From a virus, in UHGV virus genome UHGV-1367859: DNA of 64,000 nt. One strand, written 5' to 3'. The position numbers were made by a program, and so were the translations under genes. The notes under the pieces were generated by a model. That model was not told where the DNA came from. It saw nothing but the letters and a program-made list of their open reading frames with translations, and made no database searches. Shown in pieces: positions 7,261 through 19,111 of this stretch. Numbering within the stretch: position 1 is the first letter of the stretch; the number at the start of each line of letters is the position of its first letter.

Positions 7261-7581
7261 TTAGAATCTGAGTAATCTTTTAATTCTGTTCCATAAACCA
7301 TTTGTGTTGTGATTAGGAGTGATATGCACTCCTTCTCTGTTGATGGTCCTGTTTCTCATGTTGCTCTCTGTACCTACCATGGTAAAGAGGCACCCTACAT
7401 ACTTGCTATGGTTGGGATTAGATAGTATATTATACCATCTCCATGAAATACTTGATACAGCTCTGTTGAGCTGCTGTGAAACTTCCCTGAAAGCTTGAGC
7501 TTTGTTGTGAGGATTTGCTTTTACAGCTTGGACTAAGACTTGGTCTTCCTCAGCAGTCCATCTTTTTTTTTGTTCTACCAT
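7261..7581 (-). CDS. Myb/SANT-like DNA-binding protein
   Basis: RWTAEEDQVL...W...W spacing resembles a Myb-like helix-turn-helix. Confidence 0.4.
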   Translation of the reverse strand: MVEQKKRWTAEEDQVLVQAVKANPHNKAQAFREVSQQLNRAVSSISWRWYNILSNPNHSKYVGCLFTMVGTESNMRNRTINREGVHITPNHNTNGLWNRIKRLLRF

Positions 7582-7608
7582 TTTGTTTACTTGTAATTTG
7601 TTCAGTTG

Positions 7609-7690
7609 TGGAGCATGAGGGAGTCGAACCCTCGTCTTACAAACTTCACATAAGAGAATTGTACATGCTTTTCAATTTGGAGTGTTTTCT
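7609..7690 (-). other. tRNA-like 3' fragment (T-arm plus acceptor 3' strand, no 5' partner found)
   Basis: The minus strand reads ...gaggg-ttcgact-ccctc-atgctcc-a, a canonical T-arm and acceptor 3' strand. No complementary 5' acceptor strand or canonical anticodon arm could be found nearby. Confidence 0.3.
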
Positions 7691-8196
7691 TCACAGGGTT
7701 GACTAGTTGTCTTTCCACCACTCTGTTTTATTGTCCATAAACAGAGAAAAAGTTGGCTTACCTTCTCCGTGCATATCAGAGCTAATTAAGCACTAGGACC
7801 TCGGACTGCCAGTCTTAGTTTCCTTTCAGACTTTTGCACCTTTCTGTTTCCAAGCAAGTGCTGCTCAGAGTCAAGCTTATGCAGCCATTCTCACAGGAGT
7901 TTCATCAACTTCTGCATCTAAGTTTACTTGCTATTTATAGAGTATGCCCTCTTGCATGTTCTCTTACCTAATAATTTGCAATCAAATACCAGATATGCCC
8001 CAAATGTTGCTTCTTCAAAAAGAAAATCTTAAACAAAACTCCGAAGCAAGTTTTGTATTTAGCCTTATTCTTTACTAACCTTTTGTTTCTCTCCCTTGTA
8101 GTCTTCAATAAAGCGAACTTATCTTTTAGGAGCCTACATTAGAGTATGCAGGATACTGCCTTTTAGAGTCGAGGTCATGACTGTCTAATAAATCAT

Positions 8197-8245
8197 TGGT
8201 GATTCCAGTGAGACTCGAACTCACAACCTACAGATTTATCTGTGA
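8197..8245 (-). tRNA. 3' half of a split Arg-like tRNA gene, with encoded CCA
   Basis: Minus strand: tctgt-aggtt-gtgag-ttcgagt-ctcac-tggaatc-a-cca. The acceptor 3' strand and the anticodon-stem 3' strand pair perfectly with the 5' half at 8800-8838. The stop codon of the HNH ORF lies inside the former anticodon loop. Confidence 0.45.
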
Positions 8246-8652
8246 TGATTATGATGATAAATTCTATCACTATTCTTATTCTTGCTTTTGTATGTGTCTA
8301 ACTGTGAGTCACAATTAGGGCAAACAAGTCTAAGATTAGTTCTAATATTGTTGTTAGCATGACCATCAATGTGGTCAAGTATAAATACTAATGGTTTATT
8401 ATTCCAAGTATCAACACATCCACAAATAGAACATTTATGTTCTTGTTCTTTTAGGATATGTTTCTTTACCCAAAACATATTACTCTGTCCTTCATACTCT
8501 TCGGGATGTTGTAAATATCTTTGGTATTTTTGCTTGGATTGGTATTCCATCTGGCATTTATTTGAACAATACTTTCCAGACATATTATATGCTGGATAAA
8601 ATTCATCACCACAATTTACGCAGATACAATTACTTCTTCTCTTTGGATTCAT
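8236..8652 (-). CDS. HNH homing endonuclease
   Basis: A Cys-rich zinc-binding pair (CICVNCG, CSNKC) and HNH-type motifs (LDHIDGHANNN ... LVCPNC). It is paralogous to the ORF at 15485-15961 and sits between the two halves of a tRNA gene. Confidence 0.75.
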   Translation of the reverse strand: MNPKRRSNCICVNCGDEFYPAYNMSGKYCSNKCQMEYQSKQKYQRYLQHPEEYEGQSNMFWVKKHILKEQEHKCSICGCVDTWNNKPLVFILDHIDGHANNNIRTNLRLVCPNCDSQLDTYKSKNKNSDRIYHHNHHR

Positions 8653-8672
8653 AATATATAAATTTATTTTAG

Positions 8673-8745
8673 TCTCCCCTCCCAGACTCGAACTGGGGTT
8701 TATGGTTTAGAAGACCATTGTTACTATCCGCTGAACTAAGGGGAG
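8673..8745 (-). tRNA. tRNA-Arg (anticodon UCU)
   Basis: Manual cloverleaf: acceptor ctcccct/aggggag, anticodon stem atggt/accat, loop cttctaa, T-arm cccag-ttcgagt-ctggg. It lies within the insertion that splits the neighbouring tRNA. Confidence 0.7.
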
Positions 8746-8750
8746 TTATG

Positions 8751-8790
8751 CAAAGTTAGTAATAAATTTCTATACTATGAAATCCTTAGA
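8751..8790 (-). promoter_or_regulatory. Bacteroidetes-type sigma-A promoter (-7 motif TAnnTTTG), minus strand
   Basis: The minus strand reads tactaactttgcataac immediately upstream of the tRNA-Arg(UCU) gene. Confidence 0.4.
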
Positions 8791-8799
8791 GTTAAAGTA

Positions 8800-8838
8800 T
8801 CTTAAGTCTGTTGCTCTATCCATTTGAGCTATGGAACC
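8800..8838 (-). tRNA. 5' half of a split Arg-like tRNA gene
   Basis: Minus strand: ggttcca-ta-gctc-aaatggata-gagc-a-acaga-ctt... The D-arm is nearly identical to that of tRNA-Arg(CCU) at 9009-9082. The structure stops in the anticodon loop. Confidence 0.45.
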
Positions 8839-9008
8839 ATTTGCATCACTTCTTTACGTATATTGCTAATGCTACTAGATATATGGCATCAAGTGTCATA
8901 CCTATCAAATAGAATAGGCTGGCTACAGTAATTGCTATGCACTGAAAAATCAGTATTGCTTTCTCCATTGTTTCTGTTTTCATTTTCCTTCTTACTTTAA
9001 TTGTTTAG

Positions 9009-9082
9009 TACCCCCAGAAGGACTCGAACCTTCCACCTACAGTTTAGGAAACTGTTGCTCTATCCTGATGAGCTATGAGGGC
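9009..9082 (-). tRNA. tRNA-Arg (anticodon CCU)
   Basis: Acceptor gccctca/tgggggt, D-stem gctc/gagc, anticodon stem acagt/actgt, loop ttcctaa, T-arm gaagg-ttcgagt-ccttc. Confidence 0.75.
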
Positions 9083-9172
9083 AAGTAAAAACTCCACATT
9101 ATCTTCACAGACTATGTGAAGTGTTGCGACGTCATCCTAAAATAATCATCTTTTTACCTTAAAAAACACAAA

Positions 9173-9403
9173 TCACAATTCATCATCAGGCATTCCTCCG
9201 AAGAGTTTATTTCCTGAGAGTATATCAAATTCTTCCTCTGTGATAGTCTTGTAGCATACATATATGAGTAATGCTACAATACCTGTTGCAGGAAAGAAAT
9301 AACCTTGGTCATAGATGCTGTCTACTCCACATATAGAGAACATAGCCATTACCATGGTAGTGTAGAGTAGGAGTCCTTTAAGGACAAGTTTCATTGTCTT
9401 CAT
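9173..9403 (-). CDS. small membrane protein
   Basis: 76 aa with two hydrophobic helices. Confidence 0.3.
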   Translation of the reverse strand: MKTMKLVLKGLLLYTTMVMAMFSICGVDSIYDQGYFFPATGIVALLIYVCYKTITEEEFDILSGNKLFGGMPDDEL

Positions 9404-14221: not shown

Positions 14222-14293
14222 TGCCACTTGGTGTAATGGTCAGCACATCAGATTTTGGTTCTGAGTGTAAGGGTTCAAGTCCTTTAGTGGCAA
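14222..14293 (+). tRNA. tRNA-Gln (anticodon UUG)
   Basis: Acceptor tgccact/agtggca, D-arm gtg-taatggtcag-cac, anticodon stem tcaga/tctga, loop ttttggt, T-arm aaggg-ttcaagt-ccttt. Confidence 0.75.
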
Positions 14294-14297
14294 CTAT

Positions 14298-14369
14298 GCT
14301 CCCTTAGTTCAATGGAAGAACAAGGGTCTTCTAAGCCCTAAGTTGTAAGTTCGAGTCTTACAGGGAGTA
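14298..14369 (+). tRNA. tRNA-Arg (anticodon UCU)
   Basis: Acceptor gctccct/agggagt, D-stem gttc/gaac, anticodon stem agggt/gccct, loop cttctaa, T-arm gtaag-ttcgagt-cttac. Confidence 0.75.
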
Positions 14370-14454
14370 CAAACTTGTTCGTGAAAAGAATGTAAATGGC
14401 AAAGAAGTGAGAATCATTACCTACCTAGCCTGTGAAGGTGCAAGTAGGGTGCAT

Positions 14455-14527
14455 GGTGCCATCTTCTAAATGGTCAGGAAACTGCCCTTTCAAGGCAGTA
14501 ATCTGGGTTCAAACCCCAGTGGCACTA
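14455..14527 (+). tRNA. tRNA-Glu (anticodon UUC)
   Basis: Acceptor ggtgcca/tggcact, anticodon stem ctgcc/ggcag, loop ctttcaa, T-arm ctggg-ttcaaac-cccag. Confidence 0.75.
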
Positions 14528-14536
14528 CAATATATA

Positions 14537-14609
14537 GCTCATGAAGTGTAATGGTTTTGCATATCACACTGTCAATGTGAGGGATGGGGTTCAATTCCCC
14601 CATGGGCTG
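14537..14609 (+). tRNA. tRNA-Asp (anticodon GUC)
   Basis: Acceptor agctcat/atgggct, anticodon stem tcaca/tgtga, loop ctgtcaa, T-loop ttcaatt. The D-stem is weak. Confidence 0.6.
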
Positions 14610-14643
14610 CTGGCTATGTAACAAAGGCTCAGAGGAGCCAAAT

Positions 14644-14730
14644 GGAAGTCTAATCTATCAGGGATAGAAGCAGTCTTGAAAACTGAATGCTCATGTGAAA
14701 GTGGGTGGGGTTCGAGTCCTCAGGCTTCCT
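14644..14730 (+). tRNA. tRNA-Ser (anticodon UGA), long variable arm
   Basis: Acceptor ggaagtc(t)/(a)ggcttcc, possibly an 8-bp stem. D-stem tcta/taga, anticodon stem cagt/actg with loop cttgaaa, a roughly 20-nt variable region, and T-arm tgggg-ttcgagt-cctca. Confidence 0.5.
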
Positions 14731-14921
14731 CTATGATAACAATATTGAGAAGAGAAGGGTGGGTACTCAACCCTAATGATAAAGTAGTCAACTCAATACT
14801 TAAGAGAGTTGAACAGAACAATGGACTATGTCCCTGTCAGAATGACTCTGAGGATAAGCATTGTCCTTGTTCGAACTATAGAGTACTAGACCACTGTTGC
14901 TGCGGTTTATATAAGAAACTT

Positions 14922-15006
14922 GGAGAGTAATTTATCAAGGTGATAAACCTATCTGCTAAATAGTGTGGTCATTAATTTGGCTTTGGTTCGAGTCCAATGC
15001 TCTCCT
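14922..15006 (+). tRNA. tRNA-Ser (anticodon GCU), long variable arm
   Basis: Acceptor ggagagt/gctctcc, D-stem ttta/taaa, anticodon stem ctat/atag with loop ctgctaa, T-arm tttgg-ttcgagt-ccaat with one mismatch. 85 nt long. Confidence 0.45.
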
Positions 15007-15012
15007 CAACAT

Positions 15013-15087
15013 AGAGTAGTAGGGTAATAGGTAACCCCCTTCATTTGGGATGAAGTGATACTGCAAGTTCGAGTCTTGTCTACTCTA
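15013..15087 (+). tRNA. tRNA-Pro (anticodon UGG)
   Basis: Acceptor agagtag/ctactct, D-stem gggt/accc, anticodon stem cttca/tgaag, loop tttggga, T-arm gcaag-ttcgagt-cttgt. Confidence 0.7.
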
Positions 15088-15093
15088 CTTAAT

Positions 15094-15167
15094 GGGCGTT
15101 GTGGTGTAATTGGCTAACACATCTCCTTTGCAAGGAGAAGTTCAGGGTTCAAGTCCCTCATTGTCCA
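15094..15167 (+). tRNA. tRNA-Ala (anticodon UGC)
   Basis: Acceptor gggcgtt/attgtcc with the G3-U70 wobble that is the Ala identity element. Anticodon stem tctcc/ggaga, loop tttgcaa, T-loop ttcaagt. Confidence 0.7.
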
Positions 15168-15252
15168 CTTTGTTTTTCATGTTTTCATAAAATTGTAGGA
15201 CTGTTGTTAGTCCCTCTTTTCGGCAGTTAGAGGATAAAGAAACTGCCCACTT

Positions 15253-15323
15253 TGGGATATAGCTCGAAGGTCGAGCGTGAGACTGTTAATCTCTTGGTGA
15301 GAGTTCGATTCTCTCTATCCCAG
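15253..15323 (+). tRNA. tRNA-Asn (anticodon GUU)
   Basis: Acceptor tgggata/tatccca, D-stem gctc/gagc, anticodon stem (t)gaga/tctc(t), loop ctgttaa, T-arm gagag-ttcgatt-ctctc. Confidence 0.7.
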
Positions 15324-15442
15324 CCTAATAAAGAGAATAGTACTAGTGTAAGACTCAACGTAACATGTTCAGATATTAGCTCTGTTCTGAGTGTCGTATA
15401 ACTCAACCTAGCTACAGGGGGTGGTTAAAGGTAGCAACTGGT

Positions 15443-15483
15443 AGGTATGGTACTAGTAAAAGTTCGATTCTTTTACCTACCAC
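15443..15483 (+). other. tRNA-like minihelix (acceptor plus T-arm only)
   Basis: ggtaggt ... aaaag-ttcgatt-ctttt-acctacc-a gives a perfect acceptor and T-arm, but there is no room for D or anticodon arms. It lies directly upstream of the HNH ORF start. Confidence 0.25.
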
Positions 15484-15484
15484 T

Positions 15485-15961
15485 ATGAGAAGAAAAGGTA
15501 CAAGTAAAGTATATAGTATCTCTGATAAGGAGTTTATAAATTTAATAAATAGAGTTAATAGTTACTCTGATGCCCTGAGAGCATTAGGACTAACTACTAA
15601 AGGGGGTTCTTCACAAGATGTCTTGAAAAGAAGAATCCAAGAACTAGGATGTTCAACATCTCACTTTGGAGATGTAAGCATAAAATCTCCAACGCAAGTA
15701 TATCCCATTGAGAACATACTAGTAAAGAATAGTAGCTATGCTAATATAGCTTCACTTAAAAGAAGGCTTATAGACAATAAGTTGCTAAAATATGAATGCA
15801 GTAAATGTGGTATATCCTCGTGGAATGGTCAGCCACTATCTCTACATCTAGACCACATAAATGGTATAAATAATGACCATAGATTAGAGAATTTAAGATT
15901 CTTATGCCCTAACTGTCATTCACAGACAAGTACATACGCAGGTAAAAACAAAAGAAAATAA
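15485..15961 (+). CDS. HNH homing endonuclease
   Basis: CSKCG ... LDHINGINNDHRLENLRFLCPNCH is an HNH/Zn-finger motif. It is paralogous to 8236-8652 and embedded in the tRNA array. Confidence 0.75.
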   Translation: MRRKGTSKVYSISDKEFINLINRVNSYSDALRALGLTTKGGSSQDVLKRRIQELGCSTSHFGDVSIKSPTQVYPIENILVKNSSYANIASLKRRLIDNKLLKYECSKCGISSWNGQPLSLHLDHINGINNDHRLENLRFLCPNCHSQTSTYAGKNKRK

Positions 15962-15970
15962 TCATTACTC

Positions 15971-16042
15971 ATTGGTGTAGTGTTAATGGTAGCACAGTGA
16001 ACTCCAAATTCACAAGTGAGGGTTCGATTCCTTCCACCTTTG
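15971..16042 (+). tRNA. tRNA-Trp (anticodon CCA)
   Basis: D-stem gtgt/gcac, anticodon stem gtgaa/ttcac, loop ctccaaa, T-arm gaggg-ttcgatt-ccttc. The acceptor stem has two mismatches. Confidence 0.55.
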
Positions 16043-16048
16043 CCACAT

Positions 16049-16122
16049 TGGGATATAGCTTAGATGGTTAAAGCATCTGACTGATATTCAGAAGACCGTA
16101 GGTTCAAGTCCCACTATCCCAA
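16049..16122 (+). tRNA. tRNA-Ile (anticodon GAU)
   Basis: Acceptor tgggata/tatccca, D-stem gctt/aagc, anticodon stem tctga/tcaga, loop ctgatat, T-loop ttcaagt. Confidence 0.7.
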
Positions 16123-16124
16123 CT

Positions 16125-16206
16125 GTACTAGTAGCTTAATGGTAAAGCACCACACTGTGAATGTGGAAGATGTGAGTTCAATTCTCACCTAGCACCCCAA
16201 CATATG
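16125..16206 (+). tRNA. tRNA-His (anticodon GUG)
   Basis: Acceptor gtactag/ctagcac with one mismatch, D-stem gctt/aagc, anticodon stem ccaca/tgtgg, loop ctgtgaa, T-arm gtgag-ttcaatt-ctcac. Confidence 0.6.
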
Positions 16207-16214
16207 GATGTATC

Positions 16215-16291
16215 CCCTGTGTCTTATACACACTAGAAAGGGTAGTTGGTCACACGCAGGTTCAAGCCCTGCCATCCATACAATACTCATG
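16215..16291 (+). tRNA. atypical tRNA or tRNA pseudogene (isotype undetermined)
   Basis: It has a perfect acceptor (atggatg/catccat) and T-arm (gcagg-ttcaagc-cctgc), but the internal 43 nt does not fold into canonical D and anticodon arms. The only good hairpin is tgtgt-cttat-acaca. Confidence 0.3.
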
Positions 16292-16338
16292 AGTGGCATA
16301 GTAGTCCCTGGGGTGGTTTCAAACTGCTATGTCTGTAT

Positions 16339-16410
16339 CTCTAGGATTCCGAATGGTTAGGAGCTGGTCTGCAAAACCAGTATTTGTGGGTTCAATTCCC
16401 ACCCTAGAGT
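16339..16410 (+). tRNA. tRNA-Cys (anticodon GCA)
   Basis: Acceptor ctctagg/cctagag, anticodon stem ctggt/accag, loop ctgcaaa, T-arm gtggg-ttcaatt-cccac. Confidence 0.7.
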
Positions 16411-16522
16411 CCTTGGAGGAGCAGGTAGTCTATCCATGGAAAAACCTCCGTAAAAACAGCTACAATTGACTACTAAGGAGAAGGAAGGGATAAATAACTC
16501 CTTAACAAATACCCTTCTACCA

Positions 16523-16594
16523 CTTCCTATAGCTCAATGGTAGAGCTACTGACTCTTAATCAGAAGGTTCAAGGTTCAAATCCTTGTAGGAAGA
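16523..16594 (+). tRNA. tRNA-Lys (anticodon CUU)
   Basis: Acceptor cttccta/taggaag, D-stem gctc/gagc, anticodon stem ctga/tcag, loop ctcttaa, T-arm caagg-ttcaaat-ccttg. Confidence 0.75.
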
Positions 16595-16776
16595 CATAAC
16601 ATTTTAATTAAATAACAGTGTTATGAGAGTACTTAGATTTATTAAGAAAGCAGTCAAAGCTTATTTTAGAATGACTGCTGAGAACTATTCTATAAGGTGT
16701 ACAGGTGATGTATTTATACCTGTCCCTTAAGGATAGTTCCTCCTTCCTCTCTGACAAGTTATTTGATAATAAATAT

Positions 16777-16857
16777 GGGAGTATCGCGTAGTGGCAATCG
16801 CAGTTGACTGTAAATCAACCCTCTAAGAGTTCATAGGTTCGAGTCCTTTTGCTCCCA
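16777..16857 (+). tRNA. tRNA-Tyr (anticodon GUA), long variable arm
   Basis: Acceptor gggagta/tgctccc, D-arm gcg-tagtggcaat-cgc, anticodon stem gttga/tcaac, loop ctgtaaa, a 13-nt variable arm, and T-loop ttcgagt. Confidence 0.75.
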
Positions 16858-16922
16858 CTTCAATAGAACTTTGGCTTTTATCTATAAGCCTGACAGGGGT
16901 AGAGACCTGAATAGATAATATT

Positions 16923-16996
16923 GGAACTTTGGTGTAGATGGTTTGTCACATCAGATTGAAGCTCTGAGGGCTGGGGTTCGACTCCCTGAGGTTCCA
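16923..16996 (+). tRNA. tRNA-Phe (anticodon GAA)
   Basis: Acceptor ggaactt/aggttcc, anticodon stem tcaga/tctga, loop ttgaagc, T-arm tgggg-ttcgact-ccctg. Confidence 0.75.
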
Positions 16997-17019
16997 CTAC
17001 ATAGTAAAAAGAGAAAGAT

Positions 17020-17619
17020 ATGGTAATAAAAAGAGGGGATAAAGGTCCTAATGTAAAGCTCCTTCAGAGGAAGCTTAATCTGAAAGATGATGGAATATTT
17101 GGACCTCTCACAGAAGAAGCAGTCAAAGAATTTCAGAAGGCTAATGGTCTTGTTGTAGATGGCATAGTGGGAAATAACACATGGTCTAAGCTGAATGTAA
17201 CTCAGAACAAGAGGAATATAAAGGAAATTATAGTTCATTGTTCTGCTACTCCTGAAGGTGAGGACTTTACTACTGCGCAGATTAAGCAATGGCACCTTCA
17301 AAGAGGTTTCTCTGATATAGGTTATCATTATGTAATCTATAGAGATGGGTCAATACATGCTGGTAGACCAGAGGCTATATCTGGAGCACACTGTACTGGG
17401 CACAATACAATGTCTATTGGAGTATGCTATATCGGAGGATGTGCCAAGGATGGAAAAACTCCAAAAGATACTAGAACTGAAGCTCAAAAAGCTGCTCTAG
17501 TACAGCTTCTTAAACAGCTTAAAGCAAAGTACCCTAATGCTACAATACATGGCCATAGGGAGTTTGCAAATAAAGCATGTCCAAGTTTTGATGCTAAAGC
17601 AGAATATACTTCTCTCTAA
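17020..17619 (+). CDS. endolysin: peptidoglycan-binding domain plus N-acetylmuramoyl-L-alanine amidase (amidase_2/PGRP type)
   Basis: An N-terminal PG_binding_1-like repeat (GDKGPNVKLLQRKLN...DGIFGPLTEEAVKEFQ) followed by an amidase_2 signature (GYHYVIYRDGSIHAGRPEAISGAHCTGHNTMSIGVCYIGG). It is embedded in the tRNA array. Confidence 0.8.
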   Translation: MVIKRGDKGPNVKLLQRKLNLKDDGIFGPLTEEAVKEFQKANGLVVDGIVGNNTWSKLNVTQNKRNIKEIIVHCSATPEGEDFTTAQIKQWHLQRGFSDIGYHYVIYRDGSIHAGRPEAISGAHCTGHNTMSIGVCYIGGCAKDGKTPKDTRTEAQKAALVQLLKQLKAKYPNATIHGHREFANKACPSFDAKAEYTSL

Positions 17620-17630
17620 AAAGAGAGACA
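17609..17630 (+). terminator. hairpin at the endolysin stop codon
   Basis: The hairpin tctctc-taaaaa-gagaga spans the TAA stop codon and is weakly terminator-like. Confidence 0.3.
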
Positions 17631-17634
17631 ATAA

Positions 17635-17716
17635 GCCTCTGTGGTGAAATGGTAAACACAAGGGACTTAAAATCCCTCGGATTTAATCCTTGAGGGTTCA
17701 AATCCCTCCAGAGGTA
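17635..17716 (+). tRNA. tRNA-Leu (anticodon UAA), long variable arm
   Basis: Acceptor gcctctg/cagaggt, anticodon stem aggga/tccct, loop cttaaaa, T-arm gaggg-ttcaaat-ccctc. Confidence 0.75.
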
Positions 17717-17720
17717 CAAT

Positions 17721-17807
17721 GCCCCCTTGGTGGAATGGTAGACACGCTGGTCTTAGGAACCAGTATGAAGTAATAGTAGTGTGAGGGTTCGAGTCTCTCA
17801 GGGGGTA
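17721..17807 (+). tRNA. tRNA-Leu (anticodon UAG), long variable arm
   Basis: Acceptor gccccct/agggggt, anticodon stem ctggt/accag, loop cttagga, T-arm gaggg-ttcgagt-ctctc. Confidence 0.75.
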
Positions 17808-18252
17808 CTGAAATAAGAAATTAAGTATTTATATAACATTGAGTTTTACTGTAAATATTCAGGTGGCGTAATTCATGTTATCATAACCCCTTTACTATTT
17901 GTAAAAGTATGAAATACACAGTTTAGTATAATAAACAGAAATATCAAGTAGACATATCTGATAATAATATAGCTATTTATGATTCCTATAAAATCACTTC
18001 ATTATCTGATATGAGTAGTTTCTCATTCATTTAAAAGCTAGATTTTACCCATACAGTTCTATTAATAACAGAACTATGTTTAGCTTACTTAATGAATGGA
18101 GAACTCACAATTTATTATATTCTCTTGGTGTTCAAAAAGAAAGAACTGCTAGTGTAGACCTGGAGTCTAATCAATCTTGGTATATGACCGTAGCTTATGC
18201 TATATTATCTCCATTTTATTTACACTTTTATTAAAAATTTATTATCAATTTA

Positions 18253-18292
18253 TTTGGTAATTTAAATTATTTTTCATACCTTTGCATTGTTA
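18253..18292 (+). promoter_or_regulatory. Bacteroidetes-type sigma-A promoter dedicated to the suppressor tRNA
   Basis: TTG at 18254-18256, a 20-nt spacer, TACCTTTG at 18277-18284. The tRNA starts about 18 nt downstream. Confidence 0.5.
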
Positions 18293-18301
18293 ATAAAATA
18301 T

Positions 18302-18373
18302 TGCCTCATGGTGTAATGGTTAGCACAGAGGACTCTAAATCCTTTGGTCTCTGTTCGAGCCAGAGTGGGGCGA
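18302..18373 (+). tRNA. amber-suppressor tRNA (anticodon CUA), Gln-like body
   Basis: Acceptor tgcctca/tggggcg, 7 of 7 paired counting GU pairs. D-arm gtg-taatggttag-cac is nearly identical to that of tRNA-Gln(UUG) at 14222. Anticodon stem gagga/tcctt, loop ctctaaa with U33, CTA at 18335-18337, and A37. T-arm ctctg-ttcgagc-cagag. Confidence 0.75.
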
Positions 18374-18706
18374 CTAACTTTAATCACAATGAATAAGGAA
18401 GCTTTAAAATGGTTTATGTCCAATGTAATGCTCTAGCTAGAGCAGATTGACAAAGAGGTAAGTAACTCACTGTTGCAGGATGAACAGTTTGTTCTTGATT
18501 TTTATGATAAATTAAATGAAATAAGTGTTAGAAAATAAAAAAAATATAATTATGGAACAGGTAAAGATACCACACCCTATTGCTAGGATGGTGCTAACAC
18601 AGACTAAAATTATTCTTAATAGCCCCAACAACCAAGACAAAGAGTGGCTCAAAACTTTTAAAGAAGAACTTAATAAACTTATTAATCCTGAGTAATCTTT
18701 AGGAAA

Positions 18707-18779
18707 GCTTCCTTAGTTCAGCTGGTAGAACTACTGTTTTGTACTCAGTATGTCAGGGGTTCGAGTCCTCTAGGAAGCT
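18707..18779 (+). tRNA. tRNA-Thr (anticodon UGU)
   Basis: Acceptor gcttcct/aggaagc, D-stem gttc/gaac, anticodon stem actg(t)/(t)cagt, loop tttgtac, T-loop ttcgagt. Confidence 0.65.
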
Positions 18780-18788
18780 CAAGTAAGT

Positions 18789-18859
18789 GCAGGATTAGTT
18801 TAATGGTAAAATGCCACTCTTCCAAAGTGGATTTGGGGGTTCGATTCTCCTATCCTGCT
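18789..18859 (+). tRNA. tRNA-Gly (anticodon UCC)
   Basis: Acceptor gcaggat/atcctgc, anticodon stem ccact/agtgg, loop cttccaa, T-loop ttcgatt. Confidence 0.7.
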
Positions 18860-18865
18860 CTATAT

Positions 18866-18938
18866 TGTGGGGTGTTAGCAGTGGTAGCTAGTCAGGCTCA
18901 TAACCTGAAGGTCGGAGGTTCGAGTCCTCCTCCCGCAA
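18866..18938 (+). tRNA. tRNA-Met (anticodon CAU); the initiator / elongator / Ile2 distinction is unresolved
   Basis: Acceptor tgtgggg/tcccgca, D-stem tagc/gcta, anticodon stem tcagg/cctga, loop ctcataa, T-arm ggagg-ttcgagt-cctcc. Confidence 0.6.
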
Positions 18939-19111
18939 CTAAATCGAAATATTATGGGAGAAGATATGTATAAGAACGGAAAGATAATGAATGCTGTTGA
19001 AGCTCAGACTATCAGGGAGCTAGCAGATTTTGCCAATGATTATAAGATACCTAGGGAGGATGTGGTTTCAATCCTTCCTTCAAGAGAAGGATATGTAATG
19101 GTTTACTACTA

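Follow-up and report, generated by a model that had tools for sequence, protein, structure and literature searches.

What is left of a transfer RNA (tRNA) gene when a second, complete tRNA gene and an endonuclease gene come to lie within its anticodon, and does the broken gene still give a product? The question is raised by a locus on the minus strand of the virus genome UHGV-1367859, of which a stretch of 64,000 nucleotides (nt), here called the window, was analyzed. The window belongs to a crAss-like phage whose best GenBank matches are cr53_1, cr116_1 and cr106_1; in the GenBank phage collection no record spans more than 20% of the locus. The explanation that we favor, and consider probable, is that a site-specific HNH homing cassette carrying a replacement tRNA destroyed the tRNA-Arg(UCU) gene of this phage. 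Judged by comparison with related contigs, the split locus is the scar of a mobile element and neither an intron nor a stop-codon suppressor, and its two halves yield no functional tRNA. The 565-nt insert between the halves consists of an intact tRNA-Arg(UCU), the cargo or new tRNA, and an intact HNH open reading frame (ORF) of 138 amino acids (aa), with the following features.

8804..8838, minus strand: 5′ remnant of the old tRNA-Arg(UCU), from sequence reading and alignment to the intact genes of L029, L034 and L162
8746..8803, minus strand: left arm of the insert, a 58-nt spacer that is the native upstream region of the cargo tRNA
8758-8751, minus strand: Bacteroidota-type -7-like motif TAACTTTG, within the left arm
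8673..8745, minus strand: complete cargo tRNA-Arg(UCU), called by ARAGORN and by Rfam (tRNA, 56 bits)
8236..8652, minus strand: HNH endonuclease ORF, 138 aa, stop codon TAA at 8238-8236
8200..8238, minus strand: 3′ remnant of the old tRNA-Arg(UCU), from sequence reading, identical to the 3′ part in L161
8197..8199, minus strand: CCA after A73 (CCA in the window and L161, CTA in L004 and L009)

The split gene and its ancestry

Positions 8838-8807, read directly as GGTTCCA-TA-GCTC-AAATGGATA-GAGC-A-ACAGA, give the 5′ strand of the acceptor stem, the D-arm and the 5′ strand of the anticodon stem, and the CTT that follows at 8806-8804 supplies loop bases C32, U33 and U34. In alignment this 5′ remnant matches the intact tRNA-Arg(UCU) of L029, L034 and L162 through ...ACAGACTT and diverges beyond. 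The 3′ remnant begins with a loop remnant TAA(A) at 8238-8235, which overlaps the HNH stop codon, and continues at 8234-8200 (TCTGT-AGGTT-GTGAG-TTCGAGT-CTCAC-TGGAATC-A) with the 3′ strand of the anticodon stem, the variable loop, the T-arm, the 3′ strand of the acceptor stem and A73. The halves pair at 7 of 7 positions in the acceptor stem (one of them G-U) and at 5 of 5 in the anticodon stem, and joined in silico they form a full cloverleaf by ARAGORN; in the window itself neither ARAGORN nor Rfam calls the outer split tRNA, which is recognized solely after such joining. A first-pass annotation of this DNA had described paired tRNA halves enclosing a complete tRNA-Arg(UCU) and an HNH ORF whose stop codon sits in the old anticodon loop, and this picture stands: the pairing was recovered by direct reading and by ARAGORN on the joined halves, the inner tRNA and the ORF by ARAGORN, Rfam and ORF reading, and the TAA at 8238-8236 occupies the place of U36-A37-A38. 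One of its coordinates needs correction, that of the 3′ half, which had been started at 8245; bases 8245-8239 are the final codons of the HNH ORF, and the true start lies at about 8238/8234. The encoded CCA was ruled out as a meaningful feature by the CTA found at that place in L004 and L009.

Relatives of the locus (contigs with L numbers) were drawn from IMG/VR by means of a conserved stretch of transfer-messenger RNA (tmRNA) and a pattern spanning the anticodon stem-loop but blind to the anticodon, and the anticodon proved to be TCT in 113 of the 120 matches to this pattern. This count, the cloverleaf of the joined halves and their position-by-position alignment with uninterrupted tRNA-Arg(UCU) genes in related phages show that the resemblance to a tRNA is no accident. 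In the best matches, L029, L034 and L051, the gene is uninterrupted, differs from the joined halves solely in the acceptor stem and one D-loop base, and lies directly downstream of tRNA-Arg(CCU), which places it at the same locus as in the window; this CCU-then-UCU order recurs in L019 and others, and the locus holds an intact tRNA-Arg(UCU) in L019, L029, L034 and L051 and a split one in the window, L004 and L009. The metagenome contig L162 contains an intact tRNA-Arg(UCU) that shares the window's acceptor pair GGTTCCA/TGGAATC, and L164 likewise has an intact gene of the old type. In L161 a 3′ part identical to that of the window, including ACCA, retains a complete loop, A-CTTCTAA-TCTGT; the HNH gene before it is a different one, in reverse orientation. 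Because the orthologous intact relatives and L161 carry CTTCTAA, the split gene is identified by homology as a tRNA-Arg(UCU) with the original loop CUUCUAA, and the insert lies between U34 and U36 of the old anticodon with C35 lost. The uninterrupted tRNA for which the first-pass annotation had proposed to search related phages is found at the same locus (L029, L034, L051), and the loops it had reconstructed, UAA (Leu-like) or UUA (ochre-reading), are artefacts of the junction, since CTTCTAA is the loop of L161 and of every intact relative.

Group I introns of bacterial tRNAs classically sit in the anticodon loop, and the insert could in principle be an intron, of group I or another splicing type, with the halves as exons of a functional tRNA that might bear the anticodon UAA, UUA or UUU. 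The halves are conserved on a par with functional tRNAs, the related element in L149-L158 has no replacement tRNA, and a TTTTTAA loop in three empty-site contigs is readable as a product of intron loss. Against such splicing, Rfam cmscan with 4227 families on both strands at E<=10 returned only the two tRNAs in window positions 7900-9300 and no intron family in L150 1250-2100, with no hit to a group I (Intron_gpI) or group II intron in either region; the search of the insert with group I models that had been suggested in the first-pass annotation is included here and found nothing. The insert is tRNA gene and ORF nearly throughout and therefore leaves no space for a ribozyme core, and because C35 is missing the halves cannot be rejoined into the original Arg tRNA. 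Exons that rejoin to a conserved canonical 7-nt loop are not what the carriers contain: the loops that joining could give (UAA, UUA, a 6-nt loop) differ among the window, L009, L148 and L150, leaving no conserved product, and the 5′ piece of L013-type loci lacks part of the anticodon stem. Even the window and L009 are set apart by a 1-nt indel at the 3′ junction (GATAAA/TCTGT and GATAA/TCTGT, respectively), the full junctions reading ...CTT / TAAATCTGT in the window and ...CTT / TAATCTGT in L009. With no intron signal, a missing anticodon base and a variable 3′ junction, the unusual intron or split tRNA that had been proposed as an alternative is unsupported, and we regard splicing at this locus as extremely improbable.

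The HNH gene, its relatives and the cargo tRNA

Membership of the ORF in the HNH superfamily is supported by its matches to PHROGs profiles of HNH endonucleases (phrog_10822, E=3.6e-21; phrog_14736, E=9.7e-18; phrog_1271, E=5.8e-15), and GenBank lists its homologues in cr53_1 and cr116_1 as HNH endonucleases; in Pfam no HNH model was matched at E<=1. The translation contains the motif CSICG...LDHIDGHANNN...NLRLVCPNC (CSICG...LDHIDGHANNNIRTNLRLVCPNC), and alignments to PDB sequences are only weak, among them those with I-HmuI (1u3e; DH...NLR segment, E=0.36) and with the HNH domain of Cas9 (E=0.2). The ratio of nonsynonymous to synonymous divergence (dN/dS) of the ORF is 0.08 relative to L009 (dS=0.77) and 0.11 relative to L148, and the ORF is under strong purifying selection. 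From the low dN/dS together with the PHROGs matches, the HNH gene is maintained and presumably active. A second HNH ORF, of 158 aa, lies on the plus strand at 15485-15961, wedged between tRNA-Asn and tRNA-Trp, and its C-terminus resembles that of the 8652-8236 ORF (LDHI.G..N...NLR..CPNC.SQ..TY..KNK); blastn-short found no tRNA fragments elsewhere in the window, including beside this gene.

Homologues of the window HNH protein were sorted into three settings. The window, L004 and L009 share the order fragment, cargo tRNA, HNH gene, fragment. In L148 the HNH protein (70% aa identity) is encoded directly after a complete but different tRNA-Arg(UCU). Around this pair lie the 5′ and 3′ pieces of a third tRNA-Arg(UCU) allele; the right junction is that of the window (AGATAAA/stem), and the acceptor strands of the fragments are mismatched (5 of 7 paired). 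In L149-L158 the HNH gene (66% aa identity), with a 61-nt leader, sits alone in the anticodon of a tRNA-Arg(UCU) in the layout CTT-insert-TAA, without cargo tRNA. Three allele groups of tRNA-Arg(UCU) therefore harbor this HNH family, always at one and the same position in the anticodon. The homologue in cr116_1 is free-standing, immediately upstream of an intact tRNA-Arg(UCU), and truncated HNH copies are present in L157, L158 and L159.

Mobility is seen in the L149-L158 clade, with 10 occupied contigs against 32 contigs with an empty site, whose loop is CTTCTAA in 29 of 32; most flanks of the empty sites share 93-99.8% identity with the flanks of L150. Compensatory changes distinguish two tRNA alleles, alpha and beta; each is found both empty and occupied, with intact copies of either allele that match the occupied halves exactly, and all four combinations of junction variant and tRNA allele were observed in the clade. 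The inserts of L150 (alpha) and L151 (beta) show 0 differences in 487 positions, with 25 differences per 800 in the flanks and 6 per 67 in the tRNA halves. An identical insert in diverged alleles, together with these combinations, is the classical signature of recent homing, and presence/absence polymorphism at one precise site holds for both the HNH family and the window locus; an insert more similar than its flanks is seen for L150 and L151 but not for the window and L009. The suggestion in the first-pass annotation that a homing-endonuclease cassette had inserted into a tRNA gene thus finds support in empty and occupied sites, in the identical insert of diverged alleles and in products of decay and deletion. 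In L182, L183 and L190 the tRNA at the L150-type empty site is uninterrupted and has the loop TTTTTAA (anticodon UUU). T-runs occur at both ends of the HNH insert (ACACATTTTTT... and ...ATATTTTAA), and because a deletion between them could yield that loop, TTTTTAA may be an anticodon-changing excision scar.

The cargo tRNA has an origin of its own. The acceptor stem of this tRNA varies among the window, L160 and L159 while complementarity is always full, a covariation consistent with a functional tRNA. The window has a second tRNA-Arg(UCU) at 14298-14370. The 58-nt spacer upstream of the cargo tRNA aligns significantly and over nearly its full length with the region that precedes a tRNA of this type in L160 (the local alignment score was reached by 0 of 2000 shuffles), where the tRNA stands in a normal context with neither HNH gene nor tRNA fragments; by this homology the cargo tRNA brought its own upstream region of about 55 nt. 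A leader common to the window and the tRNA-less L150-type element was considered and ruled out, as the local alignment of the spacer to the L150-type leader is not significant (p=0.37) and the spacer matches L160 instead. The first-pass annotation had noted a promoter motif in the insert, and the motif is present, as part of this native upstream region; we infer from the known Bacteroidota promoter consensus that TAACTTTG may act as a promoter. A scan for sigma-70 promoters and terminators returned fewer sites than in shuffled sequences, and a pattern count gave no enrichment of the spacer motif. Since the simplest relatives of the element carry no tRNA, the cargo tRNA is best described as an add-on. 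Through it the phage appears to retain a working tRNA-Arg(UCU) at the locus, because the element picked up a complete, divergent tRNA-Arg(UCU).

In the mechanism that we propose, the HNH protein would cut or nick the uninterrupted old tRNA-Arg(UCU) gene of co-infecting relatives near the bases that encode the anticodon, and the break would be repaired from the occupied copy with the tRNA halves serving as homology arms. The carrier would presumably be immune to its own enzyme, because the insert disrupts the target and the stems of the cargo tRNA differ. The cargo tRNA would likewise resist cleavage and compensate for the destroyed gene, a form of rescue.

Conserved halves and a contested locus

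Genome-wide, the window and L009 are 74-86% identical; their HNH ORFs are 86.6% identical with about 48% of synonymous sites changed, their spacers are 63-88% identical, and the DNA upstream of the 5′ half is unrelated. The tRNA halves nonetheless differ at only 1 of 70 nt (1 of 35 in the 5′ half, 0 of 35 in the 3′ half), and the cargo tRNA at 1 of 74. Neutral relics older than the split between the window and L009 would have diverged, and the halves have not. We favor an explanation by repeated homing, in which the arms would be copied from, or recombined with, functional alleles and cassettes with good arms alone would keep spreading. This account fits L161, where the same allele was independently invaded by another HNH gene, as well as the data on the alpha and beta alleles.

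Alternatively, the halves could function as unjoined RNAs, either with the 3′ minihelix as a signal for processing, stability or termination of the HNH mRNA or with the two halves pairing in trans into a tRNA-like particle. The contrast between 1 of 70 differences in the halves and a dS of 0.77 in the adjacent ORF would be accounted for in this way, as would the perfect pairing between the halves (7 of 7 and 5 of 5) and the compensatory differences across them relative to other alleles. Such conservation and covariation would, however, also follow if the halves had belonged to intact, functional alleles until a recent homing event, and in other lineages the fragments are truncated, mismatched (as in the L148 acceptor stem) or recombined away. 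We know of no machinery for splicing split tRNAs in Bacteroidota phages, which also counts against such a role, and we consider it very unlikely.

A different possibility is that a single illegitimate recombination or duplication event brought a second tRNA-Arg, along with an unrelated HNH gene, into the old tRNA, leaving a scar that is now immobile and decaying. The non-homologous DNA at the left junction and the loss of C35 are compatible with such an event, and the HNH genes of the window and L009 show a divergence comparable with that of the genomes. The fragments, however, show no decay, the ORF is under strong purifying selection, three allele groups have one family at the same place in the anticodon, and an identical insert in diverged alleles coexists with 32 empty sites. 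A static scar is therefore unlikely.

Several observations weigh against the homing cassette that we prefer. The identity of the halves, the insertion site, the existence of empty and occupied sites, the identical insert in different alleles, the selection on the ORF, the decay and deletion products and the separate origin of the cargo are directly established; cleavage of the intact allele by the HNH protein we only infer. Homing normally deletes no target bases, so the missing C35 is not expected, and the first insertion, in which the non-homologous upstream DNA of the cargo was joined to CTT, must have been an illegitimate event. The exact 5′ half of the window type was found only in L004 and L009 in IMG/VR and nowhere in the JGI metagenomes, and no uninterrupted copy of the exact window allele was found in either collection; the nearest intact genes depart from it in the acceptor stem (L029) or the anticodon stem (L162). 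Finally, the HNH genes of the window and L009 have diverged about as much as the genomes at large, and the cassette may be as old as the two phages; if so, selection, possibly for some RNA-level role, would be needed to keep the halves nearly identical, rather than recent homing.

Recombination at the locus is evident from L004. The surroundings of the split gene are as follows.

9009..9082, minus strand: tRNA-Arg(CCU), the conserved upstream neighbor of the locus (ARAGORN, Rfam)
8983-8846, minus strand: 45-aa ORF between tRNA-Arg(CCU) and the 5′ remnant
8002-8196, minus strand: spacer of about 195 nt between the 3′ half and the tmRNA gene
7606..8001, minus strand: tmRNA gene, the conserved downstream neighbor (Rfam RF00023, 69.5 bits)

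The window and L004 share a 927-nt tract (9125-8199) of 100% identity that stops precisely with the final base of the 3′ half, the first difference being at 8198; it is flanked by DNA that is about 25% divergent, and the tmRNA (7608-8002) is again 100% identical. Because the identical tract stops there, the end of the tRNA is a recombination boundary in the mosaic of these two genomes, although which side was exchanged is ambiguous. Within the spacer, at 8133-8152 (minus strand), a conserved block, GTCATGACC...AAAAGGCAGTA, is followed by a 7-bp hairpin, CCTGCAT/ATGTAGG, whose pairing is maintained in L009 by a two-sided change. The window tmRNA was missed by ARAGORN and is homologous to the annotated tmRNA of cr106_1; tag peptides of the tmRNA in relatives include AEVDYTPVRMAA and DNTYRVAA. 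The gene order tRNA-Arg(CCU), tRNA-Arg(UCU), tmRNA is kept in many related contigs. A long tRNA-like gene (86-88 nt) lies downstream of the tRNA-Arg genes in L003 (cr106_1; 2581-2668), L017 (5983-6068) and L029 (7938-8023), directly upstream of the tmRNA in L003 and L017, and is labeled Ile(GAU) in L003 and Trp(CCA) in L017 and L029 by ARAGORN (Rfam tRNA, 49.6 bits in L029); the window has no such gene. Just downstream of the tmRNA, a 106-aa ORF (7261-7581, minus strand) encodes a Myb-like DNA-binding domain (Pfam PF00249, E=1e-7), and a similar Myb-like gene also follows the tRNA-Arg pair in L160 and L161.

Other HNH families have entered the same locus. A reverse-oriented 121-aa HNH protein (phrog_2255) is encoded in L013, L016, L017 and L161. 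A complete new tRNA-Arg(UCU) lies before its gene, and pieces of the old tRNA, 5′ and 3′, stand on either side; at L013-type loci the 5′ one ends inside the anticodon stem. An HNH_3/NUMOD4 protein is encoded in L025 and L011 after a complete tRNA-Arg(CCU) and before a leftover piece of T-arm and acceptor stem, by a gene that is intact in L025 and frameshifted in L011. The HNH-less contigs L012, L020 and L023 contain chimeric tRNA-Arg(UCU) genes that switch from a new 5′ part to an old 3′ part within either the anticodon loop or the T loop. The flanks of L020 are 99.5-100% identical to those of L013, the HNH gene is gone, and the chimera is joined at the repeated CTTCTAAGC; in L023 the join lies in the T loop. 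By hand pairing, the acceptor and anticodon stems of the L020 chimera are mismatched, and the chimeras are still called tRNA-Arg by ARAGORN. Intact, frameshifted, truncated and deleted copies together present all stages of the homing cycle, and the CCU/UCU/tmRNA locus is a hotspot at which at least three HNH families compete. A bolder proposal, which we advance tentatively and rate as somewhat less than an even chance, is that the cassette is a natural 'cleave-and-rescue' element, consisting of an HNH enzyme that cuts resident tRNA-Arg(UCU) alleles in the DNA coding for the anticodon, halves that serve as homology arms as exons do for a mobile intron, though with no splicing, and a cut-resistant cargo tRNA-Arg(UCU). 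Successive cassettes would leapfrog one another; the rescue allele of the L013 type (GGCTCCTTAGCTTAATGGATAAAGCAACTGC...) is essentially the allele invaded in L148.

Known systems and consequences

The closest precedent is SegB of phage T4, a free-standing GIY-YIG homing endonuclease in a tRNA cluster, whose recognition site contains a T-psi-C-coding motif and which spreads itself and neighboring tRNA genes into relatives without them (PMC2330249); a 2026 paper ties SegB to amplification of the tRNA-segB unit (PMC13096335). Both endonuclease genes are embedded among phage tRNA genes, but the window enzyme is of the HNH type with its target in the anticodon region, whereas SegB is GIY-YIG and directed to T-psi-C. 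SegB also lies between intact genes with no split target, while the window cassette is nested in its target, keeps both halves and has a spare gene aboard.

Group I introns with endonuclease ORFs are found in bacterial tRNA anticodon loops, including those of cyanobacterial tRNA-Leu(UAA), proteobacterial tRNA-Arg(CCU) and tRNA-Ile, and Patescibacteria (PMC13011429; bioRxiv 10.1101/2020.01.27.920355). They resemble the window element in the anticodon-loop insertion, the endonuclease ORF and the coexistence of occupied and empty alleles. The window insert differs in that it has no detectable ribozyme core, an anticodon base is missing and a whole tRNA lies inside, so that function is presumably kept by the spare gene and not by splicing. 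A protein-coding parallel is said to have been described by Friedrich et al. in PNAS in 2007, where insertion of mobE splits nrdA in the Aeromonas phage Aeh1 ('genes in pieces') and the two protein halves reportedly reassemble and stay functional. There too a free-standing HNH-type gene lies within its target gene without intron or intein; in the window, unlike Aeh1, the anticodon cannot be restored from the RNA halves, and the endonuclease brings a replacement gene with it.

Integrase islands and prophages insert into tRNA genes, carry a replacement 3′ tRNA segment in attP and leave the displaced tRNA fragment as a direct repeat. The likeness lies in insertion into a tRNA, often in the anticodon or T loop, with function preserved by sequence borne on the element, and the arrangement of L011 and L025 at tRNA-Arg(CCU) much resembles such islands. 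The window cassette, in contrast, has no integrase, carries a complete tRNA with its own upstream region and leaves fragments on both sides. Archaeal split and permuted tRNA genes, for example in Nanoarchaeum, also come to mind (PMC3218864, PMC4390854). Like them the window locus has separate 5′ and 3′ halves, a break in the anticodon loop and perfect pairing; the archaeal halves, however, are joined by a splicing endonuclease that recognizes a bulge-helix-bulge motif, whereas in the window a nucleotide is missing and the junctions vary between relatives. The known hosts of Crassvirales are Bacteroidota, and these, to our knowledge, lack the archaeal type of tRNA splicing endonuclease. Full-text literature searches found no description of the present arrangement in crAss-like phages.

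One further tRNA of this phage bears on stop codons. At 18302-18374 (plus strand), within an array of 21 tRNA genes (14222-18939), lies a tRNA of the amber-suppressor type with anticodon CUA, labeled 'Pyl' by ARAGORN, which suggests that TAG is recoded in part of the phage's genes.

The homing cassette would explain a puzzling tRNA 'pseudogene pair' in a group of phages that is abundant in the human gut, and it carries a warning for annotation, namely that such halves are neither introns nor suppressor tRNAs. It also indicates that a free-standing homing endonuclease can inhabit a non-coding RNA gene without an intron, and can do so in two ways, either by sacrificing the target gene, as in the L150 type, or by carrying a spare copy, as in the window, L148 and L013 types. 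Should its specificity be confirmed, the enzyme would be a natural nuclease targeting the anticodon-coding sequence of a tRNA and a possible tool. Competition among HNH genes at the locus appears to yield allele replacement, chimeric tRNAs and possibly anticodon-changing scars, and the tRNA repertoire of phages may therefore partly reflect selfish DNA and not codon usage. If the cleave-and-rescue proposal is true, it would be endonuclease drive, and not translational need, that turns over the tRNA-Arg alleles of crAss-like phages.

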